Source: a plasmid
Strand: one strand, 5' to 3'
DNA: 64,000 nucleotides
Sequence record: NZ_CP033968.1
This document shows positions 7,993-63,413 of this stretch, one piece after another. Position 1 is the stretch's first letter; each line of letters starts with the position of its first letter. The position numbers and the translations under genes are program-made. The notes under the pieces are model-generated. The model was given only the letters and a program-made list of their open reading frames with translations. It was not told the DNA's origin and searched no databases.

Positions 7993-7996
7993 TCCA

Positions 7997-8027: not shown

Positions 8028-8169
8028 ATCAGTGCCGCTGCTCCGCATCCGGTCCACCGCGATAGATCGCCACGTCCATCAGCGTTGCCCGACGGCACGC
8101 AACATTGGTGATGGACGGTGCCGCAGCCGACCATCAATTACCGTGCTCGCGCATCCATCGAATCTCGTG

Positions 8170-35618: not shown

Positions 35619-35713
35619 GCCAACAGCGAGCAACGGTTTTCGGACTACCGCGGAGCGCGTCAGCGCCCGCGCTACAATCGGGCCTTCGGTCATCGCCTGC
35701 GGGCGCTGGACCG

Positions 35714-36190: not shown

Positions 36191-36241
36191 CAGGCGGAAA
36201 ATGCAGCAACGGTACCGGCTGGCTCGATTCGCGCGGCACCT

Positions 36242-47028: not shown

Positions 47029-47752
47029 GCGGGGGACGGCTTGATTGAGCGAGCGCGGCCGGATCTGCCCGCGGCGGGCCAGTATGCCCCAGGCCGCCGC
47101 TCCAGCGCGTGACAATTGCGTAATGAACGACACACTCTCAGCTCGCCATTCGGCCCTGCGTCGAGCGGGCCGTTGGCGCGTTGTTTACAGGGCAGGCTGG
47201 TCCGGTCAAAAAGTGCGTACTTCGGTATTGCGCTTCGTACCCTTGGTAAGCGTTGGCGTCGCCATCCGCAGAATGCGCCTCTGCAGACCGCGACAAGGCC
47301 GGAGCCTACCGGCAGTTTTCCGAATTGTTCACTATCGTGCCTCCGGAGACTCCTCGCCGTGAAAGGCATTGCGCTTCCATTGGGCGCGAGGTTGCTGCAC
47401 CCAAAAAGGCTCACTCGAAAATTCCTGCCTTGCCCCTGGACGGGTTGGCGGGCGACGCCGCCTTCAAAATGCGCCTGGACACGCCGCACTCCCCAAACCC
47501 TTCTATATATAGAGGGCGGGAAACTCGCCGGCGCAGTCGTCGCGCCGCCCGCCGCCCGCCTCCCTCGTCGGCCCGTCATCTCGCGCAGCATCGGCATCGG
47601 CGGGCTGAGGTTGGCGCGATCCCCGTCTCAAACTAAATGGGCACACTTGCAAAATGCCTCATAAGGTACTTTTCGTGCCAGTCCCCGCCAAAAATGCACT
47701 TTTTATGTGTGCATGATAACTACACTTATCAAGCATAGAAAAAATAAGGTAC

Positions 47753-47812
47753 GGGTCACCTAGTATCCCGCACAGGGCAGGGCCTATAATGTGACCCATT
47801 CGCGCGTGACCC
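47753..47812. promoter_or_regulatory. Inverted/direct repeats GGGTCAC-N31-GTGACCC-N8-GTGACCC overlapping a TATAAT -10 box, 50 bp upstream of the island's first gene
   Basis: Read directly: GGGTCAC 47753..47759, TATAAT 47785..47790, GTGACCC 47791..47797 and 47806..47812. The region immediately 5' (47640..47750) is conspicuously AT-rich. Confidence 0.4.
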
Positions 47813-47861
47813 GCGCCGGCGCTGGGCTGGCGGGTGGCAGCGCCCACCGACCCTGAACCAC

Positions 47862-49136
47862 ATGGACCGCGATCCCGACACTCTGCAGCAGGTCACCCAA
47901 TCCCACCTGGAGGCCGCCGCCGACGCATGGCAGGCGGGCGAGCGGGTCCCCGGGCTGGCGTCACATTCGCCGTGGGAGGCGCTGATCGCGGGGCAGTGGT
48001 ATCCGAACAAGGCCATTCTGGCGCTCGCGCACCGCCTGGCGGGTTTCGGCGACCTCACGGCAAAAACGCTGGCCGGCGCCGCCGTCCGCCGGCGACTGGT
48101 GGCGCTGGATATCCCGCTGCGGAATGCCAGACAGGAGACGAGCTCCGACACGCGTCCGGATTGGTCGCGGCTCCAGGCGCACCACGTGGAAGCCGGCGCC
48201 GCCGAACTGTCCCGGGAACTGGAACACTTGATCTCGATAAAACAGATTGCCCACAAGCCGCACGAGACCGGCTGGCGGGTAGGCGTGAATGGGCTCTGGA
48301 TCGGGCCATATACGCTTGGCACCGCGGCCTGTGACGTGGCGGGGCTGCGTTTCGAGCGGGAGATGACACCCGTCGAATATGCGCAGTACCGCGCGCACCT
48401 GGAGTCGCTCGGCTTTCCGGTGAAACGTGGCCGGACACCGACCCGCACCAAACCCACCTGGGGCGCCGGCGAATTGCGCGCCGCGGCAGCGGCGCTGGTC
48501 GGGAGGGATCTTGAAGCCGCAGACGCCGCCGAAGGCGAAAGCGAACCGCTCCAAGTGGTCCTGGACGGCCGGGCGTACCCAGCGTCCGACCTGCTCGGTC
48601 TGCCGGCCGGCCAAACGCCCTCTGCGCAAGACCTGACCGCGATCGCCGAAGCCGGGGGCGCCTTGCGTGCCGCTCCTGACCCTGTTGACGACGCGCTGGA
48701 AGCCTTGGCCGCCCAGAGCGGGTTGCCCACGGAAGCGGCGCGTCAGGTGCGGGGCCGGATCGGGCAGGGACGGTTCCGCGACGCGCTGCTCCAGGTCCAC
48801 GGCCGCTGCGTCCTGACCGGCATCGCGACCCCGGCCGTCCTGCGCGCGGCGCACATTCATCGCTGGGCGGACTGCGCCGACACACCGACCGCCCGCCACG
48901 ACATTGACAACGGCCTGCTGCTGGCCGCGAACCTCGACTGCCTGTTCGAGACCGGGCTGATCGCCTTCCACGACGACGGCCAGATCCTGATTTCACCCGA
49001 ACTGGACGAAGCCGCGCGTGACGCGCTGGGCCTCAGACCGGAACTGCGGCTGGCGGTCGTACCATCGGCTGGCCAGCGCGGTTACCTCGCCAAGCACCGC
49101 GCACGCACCCGGGCCATGCGCGGGGCTTCGGCATGA
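47862..49136 (+). CDS. Two-domain protein with C-terminal HNH_2-type nuclease domain (restriction/Abi-like)
   Basis: C-terminus GQGRFRDALLQVHGRCVLTGIATPAVLRAAHIHRW...DIDNGLLLAANLDCLFETGLIAF fits the HNH_2 pattern (Q-G-x-FR...C.ITG....L.AAHI.P.....N..NGL.L....H..FD.G). The N-terminal roughly 300 aa is uncharacterised. Stop overlaps the start of the recombinase (ATGA). Confidence 0.65.
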   Translation: MDRDPDTLQQVTQSHLEAAADAWQAGERVPGLASHSPWEALIAGQWYPNKAILALAHRLAGFGDLTAKTLAGAAVRRRLVALDIPLRNARQETSSDTRPDWSRLQAHHVEAGAAELSRELEHLISIKQIAHKPHETGWRVGVNGLWIGPYTLGTAACDVAGLRFEREMTPVEYAQYRAHLESLGFPVKRGRTPTRTKPTWGAGELRAAAAALVGRDLEAADAAEGESEPLQVVLDGRAYPASDLLGLPAGQTPSAQDLTAIAEAGGALRAAPDPVDDALEALAAQSGLPTEAARQVRGRIGQGRFRDALLQVHGRCVLTGIATPAVLRAAHIHRWADCADTPTARHDIDNGLLLAANLDCLFETGLIAFHDDGQILISPELDEAARDALGLRPELRLAVVPSAGQRGYLAKHRARTRAMRGASA

Positions 49137-51277
49137 CGGCGCCGGCGACTGCCGTCGATACGCCCCTGCGGCGACGCCGGTCCGTCACGCGCCGGCAGCT
49201 GCATCGCGGACACTTCGGGTTCCTGCGGGCCATCATCCAGGGGCTGCACGCGCGGGCCATGTGGGAACGCTATCTGATGGAGGAGGGCGAGATCGAGGCC
49301 GATCAGGAGTTGCTGGCCCGATCCCCGGAGGGCGAGGAGAGCGAGGCGGCCAACGACGAAGCGGATCCCGCCGCCCGCGCGTTCGCCACCCACCCCAAGG
49401 TCCGCCGGGTCACGGCGTGGCTGCGCAGCGAGCTCATCGCTGCGGCAACCCGGGCCCAGCGCCCCGGTACCGCCCGCCGTTTGAAGCTGGAAGCCCGGGA
49501 CCTGCGGAAGATCGGCCAGAAGGGGCTGGGCCTGCCGTCGCTCGAGGAATTTGTGGCCGAGACCGGCATGGACGGCTTTGGCGAGTCCGAGCAACTGGCC
49601 GCCTACGAGGAGCGCTATGGCAACGCCCTCAAACGGGAATCCAAGCGCGCCAGGATGATGCGTCGCCAGCTCGAGGCGATCGACTGGCTCGAAGAACGGT
49701 ACGCCCAGCCCGTCCTCGCCGGCGACGCTTGCCGGGCGTGGCTGGCCGAGCCCCTCGCGGAGCGCCTGGAGGCGGCCGGGGCCCTGACGCTCGCAGATCT
49801 GCTCGATCGCATCGATGGACTGGGCACCGGCTGGGCCCGCGGCCTGCCAGCGATCGGCGCCGGCAAGGCAAGGGCGATCGAAGCCTTCCTGGCCACCCAC
49901 GCCGAGACGCTGGGCCGGGTGATCGGCAACCACGTGGCGGTGCCGCGCAGGAAGCGTTATGCGCATGAGATGGCCACGGTCGTTCCCCGCGGCAAGGAAA
50001 ACGCCCTGGTCCCGCTCGACAAGCTGCTGCTGCCCGCCCATCTGGACGGTCGGGACGGCGCCTACCGCCTGCCGCAGGCCCGCTGCCTCATCAACGCCCA
50101 CAACGACTACGAAGCCGTGCTGTCCTGGCTCCGGTCCAAACCCGGCCTGGCGCCGGATCGGATCTTGCGCCTGCGGGAAAAGCGCAAGGATGTCGGCACA
50201 GGGCAGGGGCCCTACGACTGGCTGCATTACCTGTCGAATACCCAGCGCGCGTACCGGAAGGAGGCGGAGCGCTTCCTCCTGTGGTCGATGTTGGCCCGCG
50301 GGAAGCCCCTGTCCTCCATGGACACGGACGATTGCATGGCCTACCGGGACTTCCTCGCCGACCCGCCGAAGGAATGGTGTGGCCCGCGCTCGCGGGAACG
50401 ATGGACACCCCTGTGGAGGCCTTTCGAGGGACCGCTCAATCCCCGTGCCCAAGGCTACGCGATCGGTGTGCTGACCAATCTCTACACCTACCTGAACGCC
50501 AAGAACTACCTGGCGGGCAACCCGTGGCAGGGCATCCACGTGCCGACGAGCGCCAAACCCGAACTGGACGTCAGCCGCAGCCTGACCGAAGACCAGTGGG
50601 CCTTCGTCAAAGGGTGTCTCGCCCGCCTGCCGGCGACGTCCATCCATCGCCGGTTGCAGGTTGCCTTGCCCCTGCTGTACGCGACGGGCCTGCGCCTGTC
50701 GGAGCTGGTCGCCGCCAGCACGGATGACCTGGAGTGGGTGAGCCTCGCCCAACCCGGTACCGGCGAGCGGGAGGAGGGCTGGTGGCTCACGGTGATCGGC
50801 AAGGGAAACAAGCTGCGCCGCGTGCCGGTACCGGACGCCACGGTCAACGCCTTGGGCGGGTACCTGGAATCGCGCGGATTCGCCAGTGATCCTGCCCGGT
50901 GCCGCGGGGTGGCGCTGCTAGGCCACGCAACCGACCAGGTCGAACGGGCAGGGGGCTGGGCAAAGGTGGACATGGCTCCCGCCGAGGCAGGATTGGCGGC
51001 AACCACGTTGTACCGGCAGATCAAGCGGTTCTTCCAGGCCTGTGCGACCGAATTGGAAGCGGTCGACGCCCGGGGCGCTGCGCGCCTCGCGGCAGCCAGC
51101 ACGCACTGGATGCGGCACACCCATATTTCCCATGCATTGGCCGCTGGCGCACCGCTCGAGGCCGTCAAGCAAAACGCGGGGCACGCATCGCTTGATACCA
51201 CCACCCGCTACGTCACGACCGAGGACGCCCGCCGCCGAGCTGCAATGAGGAAGTTCTGGGATTCGCAATCAACGTAA
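49133..51277 (+). CDS. Large (714 aa) tyrosine recombinase with N-terminal extension containing an HhH-like motif
   Basis: C-terminal catalytic region LPLLYATGLRLSEL...AASTHWMRHTHISHALAAGAPLEAVKQNAGHASLDTTTRYV (R..H..R..Y), paralogous to the transposon tnpS-like recombinase at 33353..34537. Long N-terminal domain with LPAIGAGKARAIEAFL helix-hairpin-helix-like motif. Confidence 0.8.
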   Translation: MTAPATAVDTPLRRRRSVTRRQLHRGHFGFLRAIIQGLHARAMWERYLMEEGEIEADQELLARSPEGEESEAANDEADPAARAFATHPKVRRVTAWLRSELIAAATRAQRPGTARRLKLEARDLRKIGQKGLGLPSLEEFVAETGMDGFGESEQLAAYEERYGNALKRESKRARMMRRQLEAIDWLEERYAQPVLAGDACRAWLAEPLAERLEAAGALTLADLLDRIDGLGTGWARGLPAIGAGKARAIEAFLATHAETLGRVIGNHVAVPRRKRYAHEMATVVPRGKENALVPLDKLLLPAHLDGRDGAYRLPQARCLINAHNDYEAVLSWLRSKPGLAPDRILRLREKRKDVGTGQGPYDWLHYLSNTQRAYRKEAERFLLWSMLARGKPLSSMDTDDCMAYRDFLADPPKEWCGPRSRERWTPLWRPFEGPLNPRAQGYAIGVLTNLYTYLNAKNYLAGNPWQGIHVPTSAKPELDVSRSLTEDQWAFVKGCLARLPATSIHRRLQVALPLLYATGLRLSELVAASTDDLEWVSLAQPGTGEREEGWWLTVIGKGNKLRRVPVPDATVNALGGYLESRGFASDPARCRGVALLGHATDQVERAGGWAKVDMAPAEAGLAATTLYRQIKRFFQACATELEAVDARGAARLAAASTHWMRHTHISHALAAGAPLEAVKQNAGHASLDTTTRYVTTEDARRRAAMRKFWDSQST

Positions 51278-51302
51278 TTGAAATCAACCTATGGGGGAAG
51301 CG

Positions 51303-51632
51303 ATGTTCGAAGTTCGTCGAGCACGCCTGCTAGCGAAGATGCTAGCGCGTGCCTACCGCATTGAAATGCGGCTCGGCAAGAGGCTGGTCACTACCGTCAG
51401 CGGCTGGGCTTTACAACGTCGCACAGTGAGCGTGGACATTGCAGAGACCGCGTGGGTTGCTAGTGACAAGCCTCGCGTGCGCCTAGTCGTTGACTTCATC
51501 AACGAGCGCATCGAAGTTCGGCAGTACGCAAGTGGCAGAGGCGACGAACTGAAGTTCATGGTTACGTCACTTGAGCAGTTCAACACCGTTGGCCACCAAA
51601 TCGTCGCGTACCTGGTACGCACCTTCCCCTAA
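51303..51632 (+). CDS. Hypothetical small protein
   Basis: 113-aa ORF directly after the recombinase. No recognisable motif. Confidence 0.35.
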   Translation: MFEVRRARLLAKMLARAYRIEMRLGKRLVTTVSGWALQRRTVSVDIAETAWVASDKPRVRLVVDFINERIEVRQYASGRGDELKFMVTSLEQFNTVGHQIVAYLVRTFP

Positions 51633-51704
51633 GTTATTGGGGGTTGGAAGATCGGTACTGCCAACAGCTTGATTCGGGTCCACGATAGACAAAGGGCAGG
51701 GGAC

Positions 51705-52325
51705 ATGAAAGAAGACATTCTGGAGCAGATGGTCGACGAGTACCTCCAGCACAAGGGGTATTTCACCCAGCACAACCTGAAGTTCCGACCAGCCAAAGAC
51801 CATGTCGACTATGTCGCCCAAGCCGATGCGGTTCACAGCGACGTCGACGTGATCGGCATTCACCCGCTAATGCAGGGGCCCGAACGGGTGGTGGTAGTCA
51901 GTTGCAAGAGCTGGCAGCAAGGCTTCAGCCCGCAGTATTGGAGTGATGCGATCGCCAAGAACAAGAAGGTGAATGGTAGGGAAGCATGGCTGGCATTTCG
52001 CGAGCTCGCCAGGCCGAAATGGGCGCAGGCGTTTCGCGCTGAGGTGGAGCGAGCCACGGGCGCAAAGGCATTCACGTACGTAACGGCCGTGACGCGGCTC
52101 ACTGCCCAAGCAGATCGGACTGCTTGGGAACAGCACCCAGAGTTCCGCCAGAGCTTGAATGGAAACCCCATCAGGATACTGACGTTCGACGATATGTTGA
52201 GTGAGCTATTTCCGACGATCAACCAGACAGTCGCCTCCTCACAACTCGGTCGCCTGCTTCAACTGATCAAGGCATCAGGTTGGGCGCTAGCTTCGAGGAA
52301 TGAAAATGGGCCATCCTTGGTCTAG
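51705..52325 (+). CDS. Hypothetical protein with PD-(D/E)xK (restriction-endonuclease-like) fold motifs
   Basis: GGGGA RBS. Helix with conserved acidic residue (EDILEQMVDEYL), then strands ...SDVDVIGIHP... and ...RVVVVSCKSW... This gives the D...D...(S/E)xK arrangement of PD-(D/E)xK nucleases. Confidence 0.45.
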   Translation: MKEDILEQMVDEYLQHKGYFTQHNLKFRPAKDHVDYVAQADAVHSDVDVIGIHPLMQGPERVVVVSCKSWQQGFSPQYWSDAIAKNKKVNGREAWLAFRELARPKWAQAFRAEVERATGAKAFTYVTAVTRLTAQADRTAWEQHPEFRQSLNGNPIRILTFDDMLSELFPTINQTVASSQLGRLLQLIKASGWALASRNENGPSLV

Positions 52326-52439
52326 GTCACGGTCACTGCCAAAGCCTCGCGCCGTACTCCGGACGTGTCATGATCGCCGATCGCCGCGCGGCAATTCAGT
52401 TACATTGCGCCTAACCGTACTAGCTGACAATTGACCCTA

Positions 52440-53249
52440 ATGAATACCAAGGTTTTTGACTGGAGAATGCGCCGGAACTGGCTGGCTAGCATCCGCCACT
52501 ATGCAGGCCATGTGCTAACCGTCGAACTGCGACAGCATCTCTCGCAAGAGCGGCCGAAATGCTGGTCGGACGACTTTGCCTGGCTACCCGACTCGGAATA
52601 CGTCCTACCCGAATTCGTCGCTGGCTTAACCAGCTACTACACGCATTTCAAGGGCTTTCATGGCTGCCGCCCGTTGAAGCTGGCCAGCTACTACGAGCGC
52701 GGCTTGCTCGGGCAAGACAGCGAACTTCTTTGCGACGCGTTCCGCGAGATTTTTTCGGATGTACCCAAGGAGGACGTGGATAGTGCCATCAAGCAGTTCG
52801 CCGACCGCAGCGATAGGGAGCGGGGCAAAATGTGGCTCGTGGGAAGTGACGAATTTCTAGTAAAACAATGCGGCCATTACCTCATCCAAGGTAGTGAATA
52901 TTTGATGGCGCTCGCGGCGCATCTGGGCCGTCCCCTGAGTGGTGAAGACTACCGCTTCCGGCTTCGCAACTATGGCATCCCGACAATTCTGGAGGTCGAT
53001 GTCCCAGTAGGCCTCGTGCCTGCGGCGCAGCATGTTGAAGTGGCGAAGATGATCTTGTCCGAGTGGGGGCAACTAGCCGCTCGGCGCCCCTTGGGTTTTG
53101 GGGGTGAGCCCCCCTGCTATGTCGTTCGCCAAGACATCCCCCCCGATTGCGTTCAGGGCCATTACCATCCCAAACAGATTGTTGACCCCCATCAGGGAAA
53201 CCGGCCGTACATCAATGGCCTGCTGACCTGCGATGTGTGCGGCGGGTAA
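52440..53249 (+). CDS. Hypothetical protein (about 270 aa)
   Basis: Co-directional ORF, no recognised motif. ORF track starts at TTG 52431. Confidence 0.4.
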   Translation: MNTKVFDWRMRRNWLASIRHYAGHVLTVELRQHLSQERPKCWSDDFAWLPDSEYVLPEFVAGLTSYYTHFKGFHGCRPLKLASYYERGLLGQDSELLCDAFREIFSDVPKEDVDSAIKQFADRSDRERGKMWLVGSDEFLVKQCGHYLIQGSEYLMALAAHLGRPLSGEDYRFRLRNYGIPTILEVDVPVGLVPAAQHVEVAKMILSEWGQLAARRPLGFGGEPPCYVVRQDIPPDCVQGHYHPKQIVDPHQGNRPYINGLLTCDVCGG

Positions 53250-53306
53250 ATCCGCCGCCAAGCGTGTGGCGACAACACAGACCGGCTTTGAAGAGATACG
53301 AGACTA

Positions 53307-54497
53307 ATGGAGCAACTTGCACAGGTTTTGAGGCAGATCGGGGACCTGCCCCAGATGGAATCGCCGGAACTCAACTTCTACGCGGTTGGCGGCGCGGGGT
53401 ATTTGGAGAACCCTACGTCCGACCTGATGGCTCTTTTCATGGGTGCGGAACCACAAGCGCCGCGATGGCTAGCAAAAGCACTTCTATCGTGTCTCGCAAA
53501 TAGAGGCCTGGCTGAAGGGATCATAGTCGAGTCGGTCGACTGGGACGGCGTTACCGCTGAACGGGAAGTTGCCCAGACCGATCAAGAGAGTGATTCTGTA
53601 AAACGCCTTGATCTCGTGATTTCTGACGGGGACTTCGTTCTGGGCATCGAGAATAAGGTCTACGCCACCGCACGCGGAAACCCGTTCCACGTTTACGACC
53701 GGCTGCTTGCTGAACGCGCAGCCGGTGGGCCAATTATCAAATGCGTACTCCGCCCGACCGATAGGACCTCCGATGTTCCATTGGGATGGCCGGTGGTCAC
53801 CTATCCCGATCTCGTGAAGACAGCGCTCGATCTTCTAGGCCAGGAATTCGTTCGGGCACCGGTATCAAAGTGGCACTTTTTCTACAGAGAATTTCTCAAC
53901 CACCTAGAGTCACTCGCCAACCCAGAGAGCGGCACCATAATGTCAGACGCAGCATTCAGCTTTGCCCTGAAAAACTTCCATGCACTTAGCCAGGCCGCCG
54001 ATCTCCTAGGCGAGTTCAAATCGCAGCTTGAGCACGATGCCACGGCACGCGTGCGAGAACGTCTATCGGCTATGACACTAGAAGGGTCCGTCGCGCTGAC
54101 TTCGAAACAGCAGGTCTGGCGATCCCTTAACCAGCATGTAGTCGAGATTTATCCTGCTAGCTGGGGAAAATATTCGAAGGTGGTACTGGCTTATGGTGAA
54201 GATGAAACGGATGAAGATCATGCGCTGTACTTCTACGTTCTCGGCTACATCAGCTTCGGTACCGAAAAGCAAAGCATCGAAGAGATCAAACAAAGGTTTT
54301 ACGCCGACACGAAGAACGAAGTCAGTTCATGGCGTACCCACTCGGACCCGGCAGACAATTTGTTTGAGGAGGGTCGATCGACCAAGTATCTCGGAATCAG
54401 CGGCATGCCCAAGGATGCGACGCTGAGCGGGGCGTTGCAAGCGCTGGAAGACCTTGCAGCCTGGATGCAGCAGTTTGTATTCACCCCGGCGCAATGA
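53307..54497 (+). CDS. Hypothetical protein with PD-(D/E)xK-like core (PDDEXK_4-like organisation)
   Basis: 396 aa; N-terminal NFYAVGGAGYLENPTSDLMALFM followed by RLDLVISDGDFVLGIENKVYA. The D-x-D ... E-N-K arrangement resembles nuclease-superfamily proteins common in defence islands. Confidence 0.45.
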   Translation: MEQLAQVLRQIGDLPQMESPELNFYAVGGAGYLENPTSDLMALFMGAEPQAPRWLAKALLSCLANRGLAEGIIVESVDWDGVTAEREVAQTDQESDSVKRLDLVISDGDFVLGIENKVYATARGNPFHVYDRLLAERAAGGPIIKCVLRPTDRTSDVPLGWPVVTYPDLVKTALDLLGQEFVRAPVSKWHFFYREFLNHLESLANPESGTIMSDAAFSFALKNFHALSQAADLLGEFKSQLEHDATARVRERLSAMTLEGSVALTSKQQVWRSLNQHVVEIYPASWGKYSKVVLAYGEDETDEDHALYFYVLGYISFGTEKQSIEEIKQRFYADTKNEVSSWRTHSDPADNLFEEGRSTKYLGISGMPKDATLSGALQALEDLAAWMQQFVFTPAQ

Positions 54498-54604
54498 CTT
54501 CGGCAATTAAGCCCGGCGCGACGGAGGTAATCTAGCCGCCCCCCATGTGCGCCCTGTGACACAGATCAAGACCAACCATCACCAGAATCGCAAGACGATC
54601 AACA

Positions 54605-55297
54605 ATGACGAATTCTCTCATTCGACCCACAGTCGGCGAGGTGTATCAACTCCTCCAAGGCGTCAGTGGCCTGCTCGTACATTTTTCTGGGGCGCCGAAA
54701 GGCGCGGGGAAAACTGACGCTGAAAGATTGTGGTTCCCTGACGACCTGCAGAAGGTACTTGACGGGAAAGCGCAAGGAGGACTCTCCGCGTCGGTGGTCA
54801 TGCCAGGCGACCGGTTTGGGCAACACTATGCGAGCAATGCGGTTGGTTGCGTTGGTGTGATTCTCGGCCTGCACTCTCCGCAATCCCTACGGTGTGCAGA
54901 TGCGGCAGATTGTGGCTCGTGGACTGACCAGACGGGAAGCCGAATGTGCGACGCGCCAGCGAGCCTCTCAATTCAAGAATTGGCGCTGACGATTTCCAAT
55001 CGGCGCCAAGGTTGCTACAACGAATGGGTGATTGCCGACTACATCCCGCTTGGAATTCTCGCGATGCCTCCGTTTGAGGTGCGAACCGGAGGGTCGCCTT
55101 CTGACTTGCCAGGCGGCGGCGACCTTTCGCCCGAACTCGCCGGAGACAGCCCCGTTGAGGTTCCAAAGTTTCTCGATCTGGCAAGCGTGCGCAGGGTCTT
55201 TCCGAGTCAGCCGCTCTACACGATGACTGGAGAAGGCATTGCCTTGGTAGGGCCAGACGACAGTACCTCAATCATTCTTCACGACCAGATCTATTGA
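54605..55297 (+). CDS. Hypothetical protein with N-terminal P-loop-like motif
   Basis: 230 aa; HFSGAPKGAGKTDAE fits [AG]xxxxGK[ST] Walker A. Possible small NTPase or kinase. Rest unrecognised. Confidence 0.35.
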   Translation: MTNSLIRPTVGEVYQLLQGVSGLLVHFSGAPKGAGKTDAERLWFPDDLQKVLDGKAQGGLSASVVMPGDRFGQHYASNAVGCVGVILGLHSPQSLRCADAADCGSWTDQTGSRMCDAPASLSIQELALTISNRRQGCYNEWVIADYIPLGILAMPPFEVRTGGSPSDLPGGGDLSPELAGDSPVEVPKFLDLASVRRVFPSQPLYTMTGEGIALVGPDDSTSIILHDQIY

Positions 55298-55550
55298 GCA
55301 GGGGCGGGCCAGCCAATGGCGGCATGACATGGCAGGGGAACGGCCGGTCACCCAGACCAATGATCAGACCACTTGATCTTCTGCCGACGATGAGTATCAT
55401 GCTTGGAGCGCTGCCCAAGCCTTCCGTGCACCCGCCGACTCGGCGGATGGTAAAACAGGGCCTATTCCACCTCCTCATTCTCGTGCTGACTTCTGTCGCG
55501 GCCGAGGCAATGTGCACACCTCTCACGCCGCGCAAAATGGAAGACTCAGC

Positions 55551-57098
55551 ATGCCTGCTCTTGCACACCCCTATGGGTCCAACGGGTTCTGGAACGATCT
55601 GGCCAGACGACTCGAGCCTTTCTTGGGCAACGTCAAAGTCTGTCTGGGTGGGAATTGGTACGACCGCTTCGAAGACCTGTTCACCAAGCCTGATTTCGAG
55701 ACTGTCGCAATCGCCGAAGGCGGTCTGCCCCAAGCACGCTATCTGATTGAGCTGCAAAACTCAGCAGATGTCCTGGCGAGTCGCTACGACTGGCTAATGG
55801 CAGGAGCATCGGAGGCAGAGTGTGTCGCCGCTCTGCTAGATATGTGTCGAGACTCCGATCAATGGCCAACCGCTATATCTCGAGCCCACAATATCCTTGC
55901 ATTCTCGCGCGACAACGTCCCGTTTGCAGAGATTAGACCAGTCCCTGAGCCGCCTCGCTGGTCCAGCGCGACACTTGACCGCGCCGAGCACGCGCTAGGT
56001 CGGTTGCACAAGAACGGCGACTCGGAAAAGGAGTTCGCCAATCGAATCAAGCGATGGCCGGGATTCGAATCAGTCCAGGTAGGTGATCGCGAGCAAACGA
56101 CGCCGCAGTGGGGTCACTGGCCTAGCCCGGCGGAGTGGCTGATATTGGCTCGACAGCTTCTCAGCATCGCGGGAGCAACCGAAGCCGGCACTGCGCAAGC
56201 GCAGGCGCTGGTTGCCGCCATCTTTGACGTGGCCAGCTGGCATCACCTTTGCGGGCTGATGCCTGGTTGTCGCGATGCCCAGTGGTGGGCATTGCAGGGC
56301 CCGTTTTTAACTTCTCTCGGACGGAATTCTGAGGACGAACGGGTGTTCCCTGGCCCTGTAGAGGCCTTCATGGATTTCATTACTCGCGGGACAAAGCTTA
56401 GTCCTGATGATGGCCCTTGGACCGCCCGTATAAGCTGGCCTTTGGAAATGCCCTATATAACGCTTGAATCCGAACGCCGCCACGATGGAGGGCCCTATCC
56501 GTTGCCAATTTTGGGGGCGAGCATGGAGGCGGTGTGCCATACCTCTGCTAGACCAGAGAGCCTTGCTGCCATAGCGTCGCCACTGAGCACTAACGACCTT
56601 GAAGGGGTGTTAGCGTGCTTTGTGATCGACCCTAACGACGACAGCTACTCCACCCGCATTTTCCACAGAGCGAACTTTGGTGGGCTGCTCTGCAAAGGCT
56701 TCGTTACGAGCGATGGCCCATATATCACTTGCGGAGACGGCTGGATGGACAGCACTCCGCTCGGCGTCTCGATGCTTCGGAAGTTTCAGCCCCATCCAAA
56801 GAATGGCCGCCCCCAGAAAGAGGGATGGTGGCTGGTGAAGTACTCCAGTGAGGCCAGGGTTGATCTGACGCGGTTCTCGGAAACACAGATCCAGCAGCTC
56901 AGTAAAGAGTTTGGCATCGTGGTTGCCGGTGAAGCCGAGTACGGGGACGACGAAGAGCGGTTCTTTTCCTCACCTGCCTGGTCAGCTCTGCAGGACTGGG
57001 CACGGTCACACCCTGAGTTGGCGAAAGACTTAGCCGAAGGGGCGTCCTACTTACCAGGCTGGTACCAGCGAGCAAAGCGCAAGGCGGCGTTGCACTGA
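55551..57098 (+). CDS. Large hypothetical protein (about 515 aa)
   Basis: Long uninterrupted co-directional ORF with GGAAGA RBS before Met 55551. No recognised domain. Confidence 0.45.
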   Translation: MPALAHPYGSNGFWNDLARRLEPFLGNVKVCLGGNWYDRFEDLFTKPDFETVAIAEGGLPQARYLIELQNSADVLASRYDWLMAGASEAECVAALLDMCRDSDQWPTAISRAHNILAFSRDNVPFAEIRPVPEPPRWSSATLDRAEHALGRLHKNGDSEKEFANRIKRWPGFESVQVGDREQTTPQWGHWPSPAEWLILARQLLSIAGATEAGTAQAQALVAAIFDVASWHHLCGLMPGCRDAQWWALQGPFLTSLGRNSEDERVFPGPVEAFMDFITRGTKLSPDDGPWTARISWPLEMPYITLESERRHDGGPYPLPILGASMEAVCHTSARPESLAAIASPLSTNDLEGVLACFVIDPNDDSYSTRIFHRANFGGLLCKGFVTSDGPYITCGDGWMDSTPLGVSMLRKFQPHPKNGRPQKEGWWLVKYSSEARVDLTRFSETQIQQLSKEFGIVVAGEAEYGDDEERFFSSPAWSALQDWARSHPELAKDLAEGASYLPGWYQRAKRKAALH

Positions 57099-57210
57099 TC
57101 TCCGGTCAGCATTCTGGATGTACATGCGCGAGAGAGGGGTAAGGGAGGCAAGGCCACGGCCAGAGTTGATTGGTACAATCCGCCGTGAGCCTTAGCCACC
57201 TACTTTCGAT

Positions 57211-57543
57211 ATGAAACAGTTCACGTTTGAGGATGTTCTGAGTCTGACTTTCGACGAGCTTGGCGCCATAGAAGACCCCATGCAATTGGCCGCCACCGCG
57301 CAAGTCTCACCGATGCTTGTACGGTACGTCATCAGAACGGACCAACTCGAAGAGAGGTACCGCGGCGTCCGAATGCGCACCTTGCTCGGTGCAATCGACG
57401 TAGCTGCCGCGGCAGTAAAATGGCCAAACGTGGTCGGGCAGAAAGCTCTGTTGGCACAGAAGGATGCCGACGTTGATGCCTATTTGGATGAGCTACAACC
57501 GCATGTAGCCAAGGCAATCGAATTGGCGCCCAAGTACCACTGA
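57211..57543 (+). CDS. Hypothetical small protein (last gene of the co-directional cluster)
   Basis: 110-aa ORF followed 8 nt later by a strong hairpin terminator. Confidence 0.35.
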   Translation: MKQFTFEDVLSLTFDELGAIEDPMQLAATAQVSPMLVRYVIRTDQLEERYRGVRMRTLLGAIDVAAAAVKWPNVVGQKALLAQKDADVDAYLDELQPHVAKAIELAPKYH

Positions 57544-57550
57544 CCCATGA

Positions 57551-57580
57551 AAAAAGGCCCGCGACTTAGCGGGCCTTGGT
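57551..57580. terminator. Bidirectional intrinsic terminator-like hairpin
   Basis: AAAAA-GGCCCGC-gacttag-GCGGGCC-TTGGTT. Perfect 7-bp GC stem flanked by an A-run and a T-containing tail, between convergent genes. Confidence 0.55.
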
Positions 57581-57605
57581 TCATCAAACGGTAGGTTGCG
57601 TACGA

Positions 57606-57973
57606 TTACTTCATCGAGGGCCAGCCCATCGGCTCGGCCTCGTTCAGCGCAACATCTGCCTCATTGACCATGGTCGTCACGACCGCAAACTGTTCCTCCG
57701 TCAACTTCTTTGCGGAAGCCAATCCGATGGCTTCCGAGTACTTGCGAGCAGCTTGCTCGCACTGCGTCTTTTGCTCGCCCAAGGTCTGAAGTTCCTCAGG
57801 GTCCGTATCGTCGTCAGAGTTGTCCAGGGCTTTATCGAAGGCGCTGGTGAGGTGACCGTCAAGGCGTGCCAGATGACGCTGGCACTTGCGGATGTGTCGT
57901 TTAACGTGGTTGACTTCGGCTCGATCTGCGAGAGCCACCGGCTCGCTAGATGAACCACCCGTGTCAGTTGTCA
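57606..57973 (-). CDS. Hypothetical protein
   Basis: ORF 57606..58055. Probable start Met 57973. Predicted mostly helical with an acidic patch. No homology recognised. Confidence 0.3.
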
Positions 57974-58192
57974 TAATCAACTCCAGGAAAGAGACTATTG
58001 CTCTGAGCTGGCGCCAATTCAAGTTGAGAGGGTGATCAATCCTCCTGGTCGACAATCTACCCGAAGGTTACGCCGTTTGGAAGGCGGCAGATGCGTCCGG
58101 GAACCCAAGCTCTGAGCGCCGGCCCACACGGCAATCCCCGGGCTCTCCTGCCGTGCTAGATTGCAGAAATCTATAGGCCAGAGGTACAAACC

Positions 58193-58369
58193 ATGGAAGT
58201 GGAAGGTCAAGTCCTATACGTCTACCGCTGTCCGACGTGCGGCCACCGTGGCGAAGTTCATTTCGCCGACGACTCGCATGATGCCGCTTCCCATACTTGC
58301 GCTTCGTGTGGTGGTCAGGTCTCGCTCGAGTGGGATGGCGGCGTGACGTTCGATGTTGTGCCAAAGTCC
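58193..58369 (+). CDS. Small (58 aa) zinc-ribbon protein, not in the >=60 aa ORF track
   Basis: Manual translation: MEVEGQVLYVYRCPTCGHRGEVHFADDSHDAASHTCASCGGQVSLEWDGGVTFDVVPKS*. It has two CxxCG knuckles (C-P-T-C-G and C-A-S-C-G). Confidence 0.4.
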
Positions 58370-58623
58370 TGATCTACCTACCAAGGGCACGCCCCAAAAT
58401 CCTTCACCTCCACGCCCCAAATCTGTTCCCCTTTGCGCCGGCGGTGGCGTCAAGTTGCACAGATGCGCCTTCGCCGCTAATATCTTGCGGTGGATGGCCT
58501 CCCAACCTGCCGACGGGTTAAACGGCCTGCGATACCTACGGACACTCGTCCTCGGCATGTGAATCTCCATTTCATTGTGCCCGCATGTAATCGTCGGTTG
58601 TGGGCAAGAAACGGAGTTTTCCC

Positions 58624-59238
58624 ATGTTGCTGCTATTCCCATCCGCTCTCACTCAGAACTCAGCTGGCGAACACAAGAAGGCCGCGCGAGAGCAATTTTC
58701 TGGCATCAAATCGTCGCACTTGAGCGAAGCCATCGCGTCTGGTTTTGGCTATCAGTCCCATGCGGCTCTGCTCGCCGCGCTGGGTAGCAACGCCCGCCCG
58801 CGCAGTAATTTCTCTTTGATTGGTTTCGGGAAGCGGTTGACTGAACTCGGATACGAACGCCCAGCGGATTTCCTGGCCGACCAGGACGTGCCCTGGGCAG
58901 TTCAATGCCTGGTGTCCCTCATGATCGAGGCGGGATTTCGAGACTCTCTTGCTAGCAACAGTTCACGGATCGGCGTCACCAAGACAATTGATGCGCTCAA
59001 TGTCGCCGGTTGCACCGAGTTCAATTTCAAGGCCCTAGGCCGGCAAGCGCAACAGCAACAGACCCGAGCCTTGCGCGAACTCTTCAGCACGGTTATCGAG
59101 TTGCAAGTCTCGGTGCGAGACGGCGATCGCGTATTGAGATCGCCGATTGTCCGAGAGGTAGGAATCGAGACGCCAACCAACTGCATATTGTTCTCGCTAG
59201 CGGACGTTATTGTCCGAGCGGCCCGGTTAGCAGCTTAG
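58624..59238 (+). CDS. Hypothetical protein
   Basis: About 205-aa ORF (track 58600..59238). No recognised motif. Confidence 0.3.
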   Translation: MLLLFPSALTQNSAGEHKKAAREQFSGIKSSHLSEAIASGFGYQSHAALLAALGSNARPRSNFSLIGFGKRLTELGYERPADFLADQDVPWAVQCLVSLMIEAGFRDSLASNSSRIGVTKTIDALNVAGCTEFNFKALGRQAQQQQTRALRELFSTVIELQVSVRDGDRVLRSPIVREVGIETPTNCILFSLADVIVRAARLAA

Positions 59239-59622
59239 CGCCCTACGTGTGACGCTTGATGCACATAACGTCTATTATGTTAAATGCGCCAAGCAAACCA
59301 GCCGGGGAGATGCGAGATGGTTAAAAGGCGGGTATGATGCCCATTTTCCCGGCTTCGGTGCCGTGTCTGGCACATTGTTGATCGGGGACTTCCTCAGCGG
59401 ATGTCTGGTGTTGTTTGCTTCCTTGTTTATGGTGTTCGAGGTCGAGATCGGCGTCGAGGCTCATTTGAAAGGAAAAAAATGAAACTGAGATTCAAGCTGA
59501 AAAGCAATCGAAGGGGCGCGGGGTTACTGGGGGTATGCGCACTGGACACTGCAGGGGAGTCACGATCGCATACGTGGCAGACTTAGGCCCAAAGAGTGCC
59601 TCAGCCCCCGCCAATTCCAAGA

Positions 59623-59648
59623 AACGCTCCACTGGGGCGTTTTTTTTC
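59623..59648 (+). terminator. Rho-independent terminator
   Basis: AACGC(T)CC-ACTG-GGGCGTT followed by TTTTTTT. Confidence 0.5.
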
Positions 59649-59703
59649 GACCCTCGTCAGCTGGCGGGCGTCGCACGAAGGATGAACTAGTAGGAGTAAC
59701 AAG

Positions 59704-60102
59704 ATGAGTTTTCATTTTCATCCGATTCCGGCTGCCGGGAACGGCGGCGGCGTATCGGTCGTGGCCGCATACGCGAGTTTCAACCCCCAACACGATAAAA
59801 CCTGGGAATTCTCCGGCTGGCTCGAATCGGTGCGAACACGAGCCCTCGACTACTTCCCAGACCTCAGCGAGCAGGTGTACTTGCGGATGTACCTGCCGCA
59901 GAATGTGCTCAACCTATACAGCAAGGGTGGCGGAGTCCGGGAAATGGCTCTGCGTCACCTCATCCCTGGCAATTCAAGACGTCATACTCGCATCGCGTAC
60001 TTCGACTGGGTCACGAGCGACCAAATCTTTGACGTTGAGGCTGACTTTGACCAGTTCATCCAGTTCGTGCAAATGAACTGGCCGAGGCTCCGGAGCTACT
60101 GA
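59704..60102 (+). CDS. Hypothetical protein
   Basis: 132-aa ORF with GGAG RBS (gtaggagtaacaagATG). No recognised motif. Confidence 0.4.
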   Translation: MSFHFHPIPAAGNGGGVSVVAAYASFNPQHDKTWEFSGWLESVRTRALDYFPDLSEQVYLRMYLPQNVLNLYSKGGGVREMALRHLIPGNSRRHTRIAYFDWVTSDQIFDVEADFDQFIQFVQMNWPRLRSY

Positions 60103-60483
60103 TCTGGCATTGGCCGAGCGCCCCAGAACAGAGGCCACTCTGGCCGGCGCTGGCCGCACAAAACTAATGTCAGCAGGCCATTGTTAATCAACACCCGGCT
60201 CGCGTTCGAAAAACCGACAGGAGAGCGCCCGAATCGGCGCATATGGCACAGCATGCGGGCAGTCCATCCATAGCCGAGGGTGAGGAAATTCTGGCCGGAC
60301 GCCGAACTGCAGCCGCGAGCAGGTGCGGCAGATGGAATCCTCTGGCACGACATAGGATGGCATCGGCAGGGGTGGGGGCTCAAAACCGGCACTCACGAAA
60401 TTGAACTGGATATTTGTACAGTACTCCCATTGTAGATCGGCATCTGGCCGCGCCCTTGCGACCCGGGTGGTGCTTACGGCGGT

Positions 60484-61455
60484 CTAGCGGTCATCTTCTT
60501 CGTCGGCTTCTGCACATCCATCGTTGTACCGCTGCGTTGGTACAGAAACATAGTTCACGGCGGAGAGATTGATCGCAACTTGCTTATACGAGCCCTCGAC
60601 ATCGAGAGTCACAAATGGCACGTCCTGGTAGGGATACTCGAGAGTGAAGCAGAATGCGTTGTAAATCGAGCAATCATCCTCCACGTCGACATCATGTTGA
60701 CCGATGCATGGCAGGTTCCAGACCACACAATTTGCGCGATCCATATACCGATCCAAGATCTTCTTGTCCACCGAAGCAACAACTGCGTCCCAATCCAAAC
60801 CCTCGAATTCAACTCTGCTAGGCGTCCCGCCCAAAGCGGGCGAGGATGGTCGAATATGAGTGAAAACCGCCAGAACCTCTTCTTCGGTGAATTCAGCCTT
60901 CGCCAGAAGATCATGGGGGGAGTCCAGTTGTGACACTATCCTCCAAAACGTATCATCCGGAGCAACACCAAGGTACTGGTCACCATATTCCTCTGGCCCA
61001 CCCTCGCCCACTTCATGGCCGGTTAGGTACATGTCGCCCATCGCTGCGCGACGGATGTACACGGTCCTGTTATCCAATGATTGGATGACAATCCCTAGCG
61101 TGTCGGCATCATCCAGCTGTATCAGGATGCGACTGCGTTCTCCATCAGATATCGGCAGTAGCAACGGCGGACAGCCGGTACTAAAGTGAATCGCTGCGAA
61201 TCCGTAGTTCTTCCTGTCTGCAGGAAGTTGCTCATCCATTCCCTCGATATCAAATGGCTCAGGCTGCCCTCGCAAGTACTCTACAGATACCCCGAGTGCC
61301 TCCGACAGAGAAATCACCTTCGCCTCTGGAACCTCGATCTCGCCGGACTCCCACCTGTGATAGGTCGATTGGCTCAGGCCGAGCCGCTTTGCAATTTCGC
61401 TTTGCGTCAAGCGCGCAAGACGCCTCGCTCTTTTCATCGCGTTTTTGCGGACCAT
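60484..61455 (-). CDS. XRE-family HTH regulator fused to an uncharacterised ~250-aa acidic C-terminal domain
   Basis: N-terminal LTQSEIAKRLGLSQSTYHRWESGEIEVPEAKVISLSEALGVSVEYL is a Cro/C1-type HTH. The remainder has no recognised motif. Confidence 0.65.
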   Translation of the reverse strand: MVRKNAMKRARRLARLTQSEIAKRLGLSQSTYHRWESGEIEVPEAKVISLSEALGVSVEYLRGQPEPFDIEGMDEQLPADRKNYGFAAIHFSTGCPPLLLPISDGERSRILIQLDDADTLGIVIQSLDNRTVYIRRAAMGDMYLTGHEVGEGGPEEYGDQYLGVAPDDTFWRIVSQLDSPHDLLAKAEFTEEEVLAVFTHIRPSSPALGGTPSRVEFEGLDWDAVVASVDKKILDRYMDRANCVVWNLPCIGQHDVDVEDDCSIYNAFCFTLEYPYQDVPFVTLDVEGSYKQVAINLSAVNYVSVPTQRYNDGCAEADEEDDR

Positions 61456-61684
61456 GATTCACCTCCATGTCGACGCATCCTATGCGAATAATATGCGTCA
61501 AGATGGAATGATCAAGGATAGGAATGAGTTCTCTCGCACTTTCATTGCTGTGATCCTGATGGATGGCGCTGGGTTCGAAAACCCGCAGCCGCGGCTGGCT
61601 GTCGTTGGCGCCTCGCCTGGCGTAGACTCGCGTTGGCCGGCACCAATCATCAGAGAGCCGATAGCAGAGCAAGGGGGAAGTCAG

Positions 61685-62056
61685 ATGGCTCGGCACTTTA
61701 GGCTTGGCATGTGGAATCGGCTAGCGATTGTTCTGACAGTGATCCTCTCGCTTGGGGTGCCGACGTACTTCCATTTTGCCCGCGGTTTGCAGTTGCAGAT
61801 CGATTTCGACAAGTCTTTGCAGGACTGCAAGGACATTGCCATCAGCAAGGGGCTGCAGCTTGACCCCGCAGCGGACTACATCGGGGTTTGCCAGAAGCAA
61901 ACCAAGATGATGTACGCATGGGAAGAACAGCATGAGCCGTACATGTATGTCAGACACATTGTCGCCATGTTCGCCCTTTCAGTGGCTGCCTATTTGCTCA
62001 TTTGGGCCGGCGCGGCAGTGGCACGGTGGATCTTGCGCGGGCGCACGCGCGCATAG
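61685..62056 (+). CDS. Small two-TM membrane protein, divergent from the XRE regulator
   Basis: AAGGGGGAAG RBS before Met 61685. Two hydrophobic helices (LAIVLTVILSLGV..., VAMFALSVAAYLLIWAGAAV). Confidence 0.4.
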   Translation: MARHFRLGMWNRLAIVLTVILSLGVPTYFHFARGLQLQIDFDKSLQDCKDIAISKGLQLDPAADYIGVCQKQTKMMYAWEEQHEPYMYVRHIVAMFALSVAAYLLIWAGAAVARWILRGRTRA

Positions 62057-62117
62057 CTGCTAGCAAGGGCCCGCCGTGCCGCGCCGGCAACTGCTCGAGC
62101 TCGAGGATATTCAGCCG

Positions 62118-62690
62118 ATGCTGGCGGTAGCCAGTAAGGCCCTGCCGCGTACGGGCACCTGGCAGTATTCCCCGTAGCACGATGGTTACCGCACGCTGGC
62201 CACACGGGATCGGTTGCGCACGCGCGGCGGCGCGGATGCCACGACATGGTTTCCGGAGATTCCTGCCACGCTAACCGGTCTGCCCGCTGGCCATCACATC
62301 ATCGACGGCGAGATGTGCGTGCTGGTCAACGGGCGCTCCGACTTCGTACAGTTGCACGAGCGCGCTATGCGGCGCCGCTGGTATCCGGGCGCACCACCAG
62401 TGGTGCTGTGTGCGTTCGATCTGCTGGTGCATGCCGGCACGGACATTCGTGGCAAACCCATCGAGGAGCGCCAGGCACGCTTGGCGGCGTTGGTGTCGGG
62501 TTTGCCTGGCGTGCTGTATGTGAGCGCCATCGATGACGGCGCGGCGATGTGGGCTGCCGTGATTGCGCTGCAGCTTGAGGGAATGGTGGCGAAGCGCGTA
62601 GGCAGCGCCTACGTGGCTGGGCCCTCGCGCGACTGGCTCAAGATCAAGAGACCGGGCGCCACCCTTCCCGGCTTCAAGCGCGATATCTGA
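62118..62690 (+). pseudogene. LigD-type ATP-dependent DNA ligase, adenylation-domain remnant with in-frame TAG at the catalytic-lysine position and no OB/Pol/PE domains
   Basis: MLAVASKALPRTGTWQYSP*HDGYRTLATRDRLRTRGG... then DGEMCV (motif III), LCAFDLL (IIIa), EGMVAKR (IV), DWLKIK (V). The TAG at 62175..62177 sits exactly where the KxDG lysine is expected. Confidence 0.6.
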
Positions 62691-62888
62691 TGCACCAAAG
62701 CAAAACGGCCGCACGCGACCGTTTCTAAAGGCACTCCTGGCGGCTAGCGTCCGTCCGAGGAGGGAGCAGCTAGCCGTTGGTCCAAGGCGCCAAGTGACAT
62801 GACAGGATAACACCGATGCAGACCAGCCGGGCCACGTTGGTGATGCTGCGGGACGAGAACCTGATAGATCACACTTCAGTGGCTCAGC

Positions 62889-63374: not shown

Positions 63375-63413
63375 ATTACGCCCCCGTGCAACGCCAGGTG
63401 TTACGGGACGTGT

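Follow-up and report, generated by a model that had tools for sequence, protein, structure and literature searches.

Tyrosine recombinases resolve multimers in several systems, namely Cre at loxP (P1), XerCD at dif and cer, and ResD at rfsF (F). Here we describe a locus with a comparable layout in a 64,000-nucleotide stretch of a plasmid (sequence record NZ_CP033968.1; the whole stretch is called the window below): a candidate 28-bp core site is followed by a gene for an HNH nuclease and a gene for a 714-amino-acid (aa) tyrosine recombinase. The locus shares with the Cre, XerCD and ResD systems a single core site per replicon, inverted arms around a 6–8 bp centre (with the same 11-6-11 core architecture as dif), a recombinase gene that lies beside the site and near partition genes, and, among NCBIfam models, best matches to Xer. 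It differs from them in that the recombinase belongs to another subgroup and scores far below the Xer cut-offs, in that the centres vary among plasmids, and in that its activity is putative.

Recombinases with a DUF3701 domain form the 'TnpR subgroup' of simple tyrosine recombinases (Smyshlyaev et al. 2021, PMC8138268). The recombinase of the window shares with the 'resolvase TnpR' of Tn4401, whose resolvase-type annotation is compatible with a role in single-site resolution, both DUF3701 and the catalytic domain (34% identity over aa 233-707, E 6e-60, tblastn against plasmids). Unlike Tn4401 TnpR, it does not lie beside a Tn3-family transposase, has about 230 extra N-terminal residues, occupies a backbone position by the par/rep genes, and is separated from its candidate site by a passenger gene. 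We consider it likely, with some room for doubt, that the region combines a module for plasmid recombination, made up of site, passenger and recombinase, with a downstream patchwork of accessory genes that were acquired separately and are partly of defence type.

Results

The stretch belongs to a known heavy-metal megaplasmid of Cupriavidus, of the pMOL30 family, and forms its maintenance region. Window 47708-63413 is about 97% identical to pMOL30 (NC_007971.2, 213701-232023; Cupriavidus metallidurans CH34) and to three or four related plasmids that share the pMOL30 replicon type, and the matching stretch of pMOL30 is the final 18 kb ahead of parA(1)-parB-repA. The remainder of the window gives long 100% matches to plasmid p1 of C. 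metallidurans BS1. The region is thus already public and annotated (in pMOL30), mostly under 'hypothetical protein' labels, and we did not find it discussed in the pMOL30 papers searched. The features of the putative module are the following.

47661..47669, + strand: 9-mer ATAAGGTAC, left copy; candidate accessory half-site, partly conserved in pMOL30 and EM10
47709..47736, no strand assigned: 28-bp lox/dif-like core, GTGCATGATAA-CTACAC-TTATCAAGCAT, 11-6-11; candidate crossover site
47744..47752, + strand: 9-mer ATAAGGTAC, right copy, within the invariant AAAATAAGGTACG
47784..47789, + strand: TATAAT, conserved −10-like box, in the conserved CTATAATGTGAC (one variable position)
47862..49136, + strand: 424-aa HNH_2 nuclease, apparent passenger, with three small N-terminal alpha/beta modules and a C-terminal HNH
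49133..51277, + strand: 714-aa tyrosine recombinase of the DUF3701 'TnpR subgroup' (Pfam, NCBIfam)

A long DUF3701 recombinase in a backbone position

The earlier note on this DNA had recognized a 714-aa tyrosine recombinase with an HhH-like N-terminal extension, and Pfam bears this out: DUF3701 (PF12482) is found at aa 186-273 (E 4e-19) and Phage_integrase (PF00589) at aa 503-698 (E 1.7e-13). The catalytic set is complete (R521, K560, H658, R661, H684 and Y693, located through the motifs ATGLR, GKGNK, HWMR, NAGH and TTRY), so that the protein has the R-K-H-R-H/W-Y catalytic domain of tyrosine recombinases, and its DUF3701 domain and homology to Tn4401 TnpR place it in the 'TnpR subgroup'. The Xer models are its best named relatives in NCBIfam, every score being far below the family cut-off. 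Searching plasmids (PLSDB) with tblastn matched 1649 records, 153 of them at full length (at least 80% coverage); Klebsiella (Tn4401 TnpR), Burkholderia, Ralstonia and Cupriavidus predominate among all matches. The window and pMOL30 alleles are 94.3% identical at the protein level, with a ratio of nonsynonymous to synonymous substitution rates (dN/dS) of 0.083.

In other plasmids, the par/rep genes follow the gene directly or are no more than about 1.5 kb from it (RS24, B. thailandensis, USMAHM13, WXY105 p2 and C. pampae), or are 4 kb away (USMAA2-4). The order is recombinase, parA, parB, rep in the R. solanacearum RS24 plasmid, HU, recombinase, parA, parB, rep in the B. thailandensis plasmid, and recombinase, ParA, small open reading frame (ORF), TrfA in WXY105 p2 (a TrfA replicon); the recombinase adjoins ParB/ParA/Rep in USMAHM13 and ParA in C. 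pampae. Only in pMOL30-type plasmids does the distance between recombinase and parA reach 11–16 kb, the interval being a block of low GC (guanine plus cytosine) content. In C. campinensis, the equivalent layout is HNH, recombinase, hypotheticals, SRAP peptidase, parA, parB, rep, and the par end has no insertion sequence (IS) interruptions nearby. The long recombinase is a plasmid backbone gene in the contexts examined. It does not form part of a Tn3-family module: no transposase adjoins it in the window or in pMOL30, and the Tn3 transposase closest to it (36242-39223) is part of another element, which has a recombinase of its own.

A candidate recombination site upstream of the recombinase operon

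The DNA upstream of the HNH gene is conserved: 47708-47850 is retained even in plasmids in which blastn no longer detects the HNH coding sequence. Within it, the inner arms of the 28-bp core, TGATAA and TTATCA, are identical at all 12 aligned plasmid and genome-contig sites, and the 6-bp centres vary (CTACAC, CCGTAC, CCGCAC, CCATAC, TCGCTA, GTCTTA and GTATTC); four further assembly contigs carry identical sites. The core is present once per plasmid (10 plasmid records) and once in the window. Inverted arms around a 6–8 bp centre, beside a recombinase gene and in a single copy per replicon, are the layout of lox, dif and cer sites. The 9-mer ATAAGGTAC occurs twice in the 64-kb window, one copy on each side of the core, against 0.07 expected. 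The TATAAT box is a candidate −10 element of the promoter of the HNH–recombinase operon; on direct reading there is no good candidate for a −35 box upstream of that operon.

Similar sites accompany more distant long relatives of the recombinase. A perfect 10-6-10 palindrome lies 200–300 bp upstream of the gene both in R. pickettii (TGCAAAATAA-CCCGGC-TTATTTTGCA) and in B. thailandensis (GGTAACATAG-CCCTTA-CTATGTTACC). A site-first scan of metagenome contigs gave 119 matches, among which 16 loci with new centres carry a relative of the recombinase (23–89% identity), 165–2600 bp from the site at 15 of them and 7.1 kb away at the other. Such a relative was present at 11 of the 57 loci that extended 3 kb or more to one side of the site.

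The same arms (GCATGATAA...TTATCAAGCAC) were also seen near much more distant, shorter recombinases in five metagenome contigs (L070, L120, L134, L061 and L105). These proteins are 23–25% identical to the long recombinase in an alignment limited to aa 368-714, and lie about 510–1400 bp from the site (about 510–530 bp in four of the five). Sites of this type may predate the extended N-terminal part of the recombinase.

Palindromicity by itself was rejected as evidence for the site, since about one palindrome of this kind is expected by chance per 64 kb. The case for the site is made by its conservation, its position and the natural recombinants described below.

Natural recombinants break within the 28 bp

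The window and BS1 p1 are identical over 45001-47735 and, except for a single-nucleotide polymorphism at 51990, over 51095-56102; all 526 differences fall within 47736-51094. The window and pMOL30 differ by a single mismatch across 51208-60759. A 3.4-kb cassette with about 15% DNA divergence, comprising the upstream element, the HNH gene and most of the recombinase gene, thus sits inside otherwise identical DNA. In other assemblies, the exact HNH protein of the window is found with other flanks. Denoting each replicon by its left flank, the three variable nucleotides of the centre and its right module, with W for the window type, P for the pMOL30 type and C for a third left flank, the combinations are as follows.

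Window: W-TAC-W
BS1: W-TAC-P
pMOL30: P-CGT-P
L026: P-CGT-W
L025: P-TAC-W
C. campinensis: C-CGC-P

All four combinations of W or P left flank with W or P right module exist. The variable central nucleotides follow the left flank in BS1 and L026, where the exchange point maps to the right arm (47724-47735), and the right module in L025, where it maps to the left arm (47708-47720). Because the central nucleotides segregate with either flank, the exchange points fall within the 28 bp, to the left of the centre or to its right. Indeed, all three exchanges occurred there, although the alleles share about 85% identity over 3.4 kb and a longer perfect stretch at 47741-47763. This pattern is the outcome that would be expected from strand exchange at both edges of the central region of a tyrosine-recombinase site. 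By contrast with these left exchanges, the right-hand junctions would fit ordinary homologous recombination: the alleles converge at 51095 and L025 turns EM10-type at about 51135, both at the almost invariant stretch coding for box II (HWMRHTH).

The palindrome could also be an operator or a parS-like centromere only, with the flank differences stopping there through selection on the promoter region. It does lie beside the conserved −10 box and near par genes, and operators are typically palindromic. Yet it accompanies the recombinase across Par/Rep types (rep_cluster_332, rep_cluster_331, TrfA), it is single where plasmid centromeres are usually repeated, conserved arms around a free 6-bp centre are a hallmark of tyrosine-recombinase cores, and the central nucleotides segregate with either flank among the recombinants. 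We hold this explanation to be rather doubtful and prefer that of a recombination site. The homologies, the gene contexts, the conservation of the site and the breakpoints of the recombinants on which this comparison draws were all observed directly.

The HNH gene occupies a variable slot

The earlier note was correct in that the first gene ends in an HNH_2-type nuclease motif (PF13391, E 1.1e-10, aa 316-370, at the C-terminus) and that its stop overlaps the recombinase start (ATGA; 4 nucleotides shared by 47862..49136 and 49133..51277). Residues H331, N350, D359 and E363 align with H224, N241, D250 and D254 of VcaM4I, and the active site is therefore intact. The catalytic domain resembles those of type IV modification-dependent restriction enzymes, VcaM4I (EVE-HNH) and ScoMcrA being the closest to it. 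Internal repeats in the N-terminal part are weak at the sequence level (z 2–3.5), the repeat being visible in the predicted secondary structure only. Compared with the pMOL30 allele, the protein is 74.6% identical, with a dN/dS of 0.28 and a faster-evolving N-terminal region (dN up to 0.38). Both the HNH protein and the recombinase are functional as judged from their dN/dS values (0.28 and 0.083).

Among relatives, the slot between site and recombinase contains an HNH gene, a KAP NTPase gene plus an HNH gene, a KAP gene alone, a 76-aa KAP remnant, or nothing, so that the HNH gene appears to be a facultative passenger of the recombination module. A gene for this NTPase (KAP-family P-loop, PF07693, E 4e-31), or the remnant of 76 aa, was seen at L002 6142-7566, L016 4433-5929 and L011 9156-9386. 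In C. pampae, the KAP stop overlaps the recombinase start by 4 nucleotides, like the HNH stop in the window. The coupling that had been called unusual is thus real as regards the overlap, but facultative among relatives.

One could instead regard the HNH protein and the recombinase as a functional pair, with the nuclease, for example, promoting homing by cutting rival alleles or sites, or assisting recombination. The 4-nucleotide overlap is indeed kept in the window, pMOL30 and relatives, the allele swap spans exactly the HNH–recombinase cassette, and the HNH gene is under purifying selection with a faster N-terminal region. A strict partnership fits poorly, however, with recombinases that have only a KAP gene, a remnant or no gene upstream, with the 69–108 bp that separate the two genes in USMAA2-4 and USMAHM13, and with an HNH domain that is closest to stand-alone type IV restriction enzymes. 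We regard such a pairing as unlikely and treat the HNH gene as a passenger.

Two layers of different composition

The region from about 47.6 kb had been described as AT-richer than a background of 65–70% GC. The 64-kb window is in fact mostly 55–65% GC, 47.5-51.0 kb (the HNH and recombinase genes) is its GC-richest part (65–72%), and the content falls to 54–58% only from about 51.2 kb, directly past the recombinase stop. The GC content of third codon positions (GC3) follows the same division, being 0.80 for the HNH gene, 0.84 for the recombinase gene and 0.58–0.70 for the downstream ORFs, referred to below as the cargo. All main ORFs show GC1 > GC2 < GC3, and thus behave as real coding regions. 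The backbone module and the cargo therefore appear to be two layers with different histories.

These data bear on the possibility, put forward in the earlier note, that 47.6-62.7 kb is an integrative island or a phage-inducible satellite opened by the recombinase, which would be its integrase. A tyrosine recombinase does stand at one end of a region whose cargo has a lower GC content and differs between EM10 and pMOL30-type plasmids, and the left flanks at the site differ between plasmids. Against this, the recombinase and HNH genes have the high GC content of the backbone and a history unlike that of the cargo, and relatives that lack the cargo have the recombinase beside parA/parB/rep. Moreover, comparison of about 47.6 kb with 62–63.4 kb revealed only short chance matches and no meaningful direct repeats; the core is single in the window and in each plasmid; no tRNA or tmRNA was found in the window and no Rfam family within 47-64 kb; and a PHROGs search of the region matched only integrase and unnamed HNH families and no phage or satellite genes. 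An island of this kind is, in our judgement, extremely improbable. The nuclease-rich, accessory character that had suggested a defence island or satellite is real in that genes of defence type are present (HNH, PDC-S26 and ADP-ribosyltransferase fold), but the island architecture is not.

The seven co-directional genes downstream of the recombinase

As had been reported in the earlier note, seven co-directional ORFs follow the recombinase; they span 51291..57543 and are also called by RefSeq in pMOL30.

51291..51632, + strand: 113-aa ORF, no family; carried by pMOL30-type plasmids only
51705..52325, + strand: 206-aa ORF, possible Mrr-like PD-(D/E)xK nuclease (weak; Mrr_cat E 0.021, sub-threshold)
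52440..53249, + strand: 269-aa protein of an unnamed family, ADP-ribosyltransferase fold, C-terminal HxH...CxxC
53307..54497, + strand: 396-aa PDDEXK_4 nuclease (Pfam E 5.4e-35; PADLOC PDC-S26)
54605..55297, + strand: 230-aa ORF, no family; Walker-A-like string absent from the homologues found
55512..57098, + strand: 528-aa ORFan; the RefSeq start corresponds to window 55551
57211..57543, + strand: 110-aa ORF; homologues on Robbsia and Pandoraea plasmids

Two genes are of particular interest. The 396-aa protein matches the PADLOC model PDC-S26 (hidden Markov model PDLC04981) over aa 2-343 (E 3.7e-44), that is, across nearly its full length; PDC-S26 is itself predicted only, the PDC systems being 'guilt-by-embedding' predictions of candidate status (bioRxiv 10.1101/2024.01.29.577857). 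The 269-aa protein has an ADP-ribosyltransferase fold without any sequence-level family match (Pfam, PADLOC, NCBIfam). H74, Y84/Y147 and E185 are invariant in its family and are candidates for an H-Y-E role, and searching BFVD gave only weak ADP-ribosyltransferase-like phage matches. The closest known proteins are DarT, Tpt1/KptA and PARPs (the H-Y-E class) and pertussis-like toxins. It differs from H-Y-E ADP-ribosyltransferases in lacking a sequence-level family match, in its extra C-terminal HxH...CxxC module, and in that no macro-domain or other obvious antidote gene lies beside its gene; indeed, no DarTG-like antidote (Macro domain) was found among the neighbours here or in three other contexts. 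Its homologues were seen as single genes inside defence islands (L019-L023), without a match in PADLOC-DB v2. These islands hold SMODS/E2-CBASS, a reverse transcriptase with SLATT, HEPN, or OLD-TOPRIM with UvrD.

The other ORFs gave less. Of the two genes previously described as PD-(D/E)xK-like, 53307..54497 is confirmed as PDDEXK_4, but 51705..52325 reaches only the sub-threshold Mrr_cat match; the latter has one homologue, on an Azospirillum replicon (39.5% identity). The P-loop proposed for 54605..55297 is a chance motif: the string GAPKGAGKT is present, but it is absent from the sole homologues found (R. etli, M. extorquens) and was rejected, and the ORF has no match in Pfam, NCBIfam or PADLOC and no NTPase family. 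Residues ~332-522 of the 528-aa ORF have stand-alone homologues of about 140–190 aa (33–44% identity) on large Pseudomonas megaplasmids and Ralstonia insidiosa plasmids; in BS1, this gene is split by an insertion. Sequence searches of the PDB with the 206-, 230-, 396- and 528-aa ORFs gave nothing meaningful, and a PADLOC check of 20 ORFs gave no matches beyond HNH models, PDC-S26 and, for the regulator described below, its HTH.

Do the seven genes (51291-57543) form one new multi-gene defence system? They share one strand, with gaps of 13–214 bp and a closing hairpin, and two or three of their products are nuclease-like or toxin-like. There are, however, no overlapping start and stop codons within the cluster. 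When the concatenated cargo ORFs were used in tblastn, every match outside pMOL30-type plasmids was to a single ORF, the hosts being unrelated, and the homologues were never found together; the neighbours of the 269-aa homologues are unrelated across three genomes; PDC-S26 is defined as a single-gene candidate; and the 528-aa gene is an ORFan, disrupted in BS1. A seven-gene system thus seems very unlikely, and the suggestion of an undescribed system whose genes would co-occur elsewhere is not supported, the seven genes being together only in pMOL30-type plasmids. We favour separate acquisition of the cargo genes. EM10 and 2SB have other genes after the recombinase, followed by an intact Ku-LigD module, and L025 has an EM10-type neighbour there. 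In addition, IS elements and deletions differ between plasmids, the IS elements interrupting different genes.

Hairpin, downstream genes and neighbouring elements

Beyond the cargo, the window contains the following features.

57554..57577, no strand assigned: GC-rich hairpin, 9-bp stem with 7 GC, between convergent genes
57606..58055, − strand: 149-aa ORF (122 aa in RefSeq), no family
58193..58372, + strand: 59-aa zinc-ribbon ORF, CPTC...CASC, absent from the RefSeq annotation
58600..60102, + strand: three ORFs of 212, 77 and 132 aa, no family
60484..61455, − strand: 323-aa XRE-HTH regulator (HTH_3 E 7e-14) with a C-terminal domain of no named family
61445..62056, + strand: ORF with two hydrophobic segments, divergent from the regulator gene
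62214..62690, + strand: ATP-dependent DNA ligase fragment, N-terminally truncated (DNA_ligase_A_M positions 46-204 of 204)
63413..64000, + strand: IS66-family element, left end; the homology with pMOL30 stops here

The hairpin had been taken for a strong terminator closing the seven ORFs. It is real, but only for 57606..58055, the minus-strand gene, does it form a canonical terminator, with a T-run behind it; on the plus strand it is followed by GGTTCATC. The zinc-ribbon mini-ORF, the XRE-HTH fusion regulator and the divergent protein with two transmembrane segments were all found as announced. In pMOL30, the regulator gene is interrupted by ISRme13. The decayed LigD ligase was likewise recovered, with only positions 46-204 of the DNA_ligase_A_M profile; the ligase domain being partial and Ku being absent from the window, there is no LigD-type non-homologous end-joining module here, and an intact Ku and LigD lie at the equivalent place in EM10.

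Several stretches of the window have a distribution of their own. The IS66 element is identical to a copy in C. campinensis (L007 19911-20498), where it lies between the 77-aa and 132-aa ORFs, and it has therefore been active recently in this plasmid family. The 1.8 kb of window 57443-59287 recur with 100% identity in a C. metallidurans plasmid of 153 kb that is otherwise unrelated (CP151111) and, as the BS1 homology ends at 59286, this segment moves separately. An IS481-family transposase and AAA ATPase element at 4649-8186 has copies of about 100% identity on many Cupriavidus plasmids and on CH34 chromosome 2. A separate Tn3-family transposon occupies 33100-39223, with its transposase at 36242-39223(+) and its own tyrosine recombinase at ~33410-34465(−), 32% identical to aa 305-703 of the long recombinase; it is 92.5% identical to a stretch of a C. 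taiwanensis plasmid annotated 'Tn3 transposase', 'tyrosine recombinase' and 'DNA-binding protein'. The DNA immediately to the left of the site (46009-47597) encodes, in the window and BS1, a heptosyltransferase (Glyco_transf_9, waaC) and amino-acid ABC transporter proteins; pMOL30, C. campinensis and EM10 each have different DNA there.

Discussion

The arrangement that we favour has two layers. The first (47.66-51.28 kb, high GC) would be a site-specific recombination module made up of the single 28-bp core, the ATAAGGTAC repeats, the −10 box and an operon ending in the DUF3701 recombinase. We infer that the recombinase acts on the 28-bp site: it would bind both 11-bp arms and exchange strands at the edges of the 6-bp centre. 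Such activity would resolve plasmid multimers, which is probably the role of the module, and recombination with other plasmids that share the arms would, as a by-product, swap whole plasmid arms. The slot between site and recombinase would hold a passenger, here the gene for an HNH nuclease of the type IV restriction type. In the second layer (51.29-63.4 kb, low GC), accessory genes would have accumulated between the recombinase and parA; it comprises at least two stand-alone genes of defence type (the PDC-S26-like PDDEXK_4 and the ADP-ribosyltransferase-fold protein) as well as ORFans, the regulator gene, the remnant of a ligase gene and inserted IS elements. Defence activity of the cargo and HNH products is putative.

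Several observations weigh against this interpretation. In the literature searched, we found no description of the substrates of DUF3701 recombinases, and in Tn4401 the interval between tnpA and tnpR has no inverted repeat or palindrome comparable to the core. Chance alone should give about one 11-6-11 palindrome with no more than one mismatch in every 64 kb, and the site of the window itself has two arm mismatches. Most of the metagenome matches to the site have no recombinase nearby; we take these to be chance matches and short contigs. As for the recombinants, centres that differ at three of six positions should hinder the canonical two-step exchange of tyrosine recombinases, and hybrid sites would consequently need a heteroduplex or a replication step. 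Homologous or illegitimate recombination may instead have made the three hybrids, with the arms acting as short islands of identity. Finally, it is only position and single-copy status that point to multimer resolution.

The analysis removes a false lead, in that it finds neither a new integrative element nor a seven-gene system. What remains of interest is the inferred site with its recombinants, together with two uncharacterised protein families that are targets for further work: the unnamed, well-folded ADP-ribosyltransferase-like family, found in defence islands, and the HNH nuclease with its new triple N-terminal module. For the 'TnpR subgroup' of DUF3701 recombinases, of which we found no site-level description in the literature searched, the 28-bp core is a concrete candidate substrate.

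A bolder and rather unlikely version of these ideas is that site and recombinase form an active module-swapping device of Burkholderiaceae megaplasmids, with KAP and HNH proteins as allele-specific weapons or homing-like drivers that would give an advantage to the cassette encoding them. If true, the device would fuse and re-sort whole plasmid arms between co-resident replicons, and the weapons or drivers would explain the ~15%-diverged 3.4-kb cassette in otherwise identical plasmids. More generally, the natural recombinants suggest that the site shapes the mosaic structure of metal-resistance megaplasmids.

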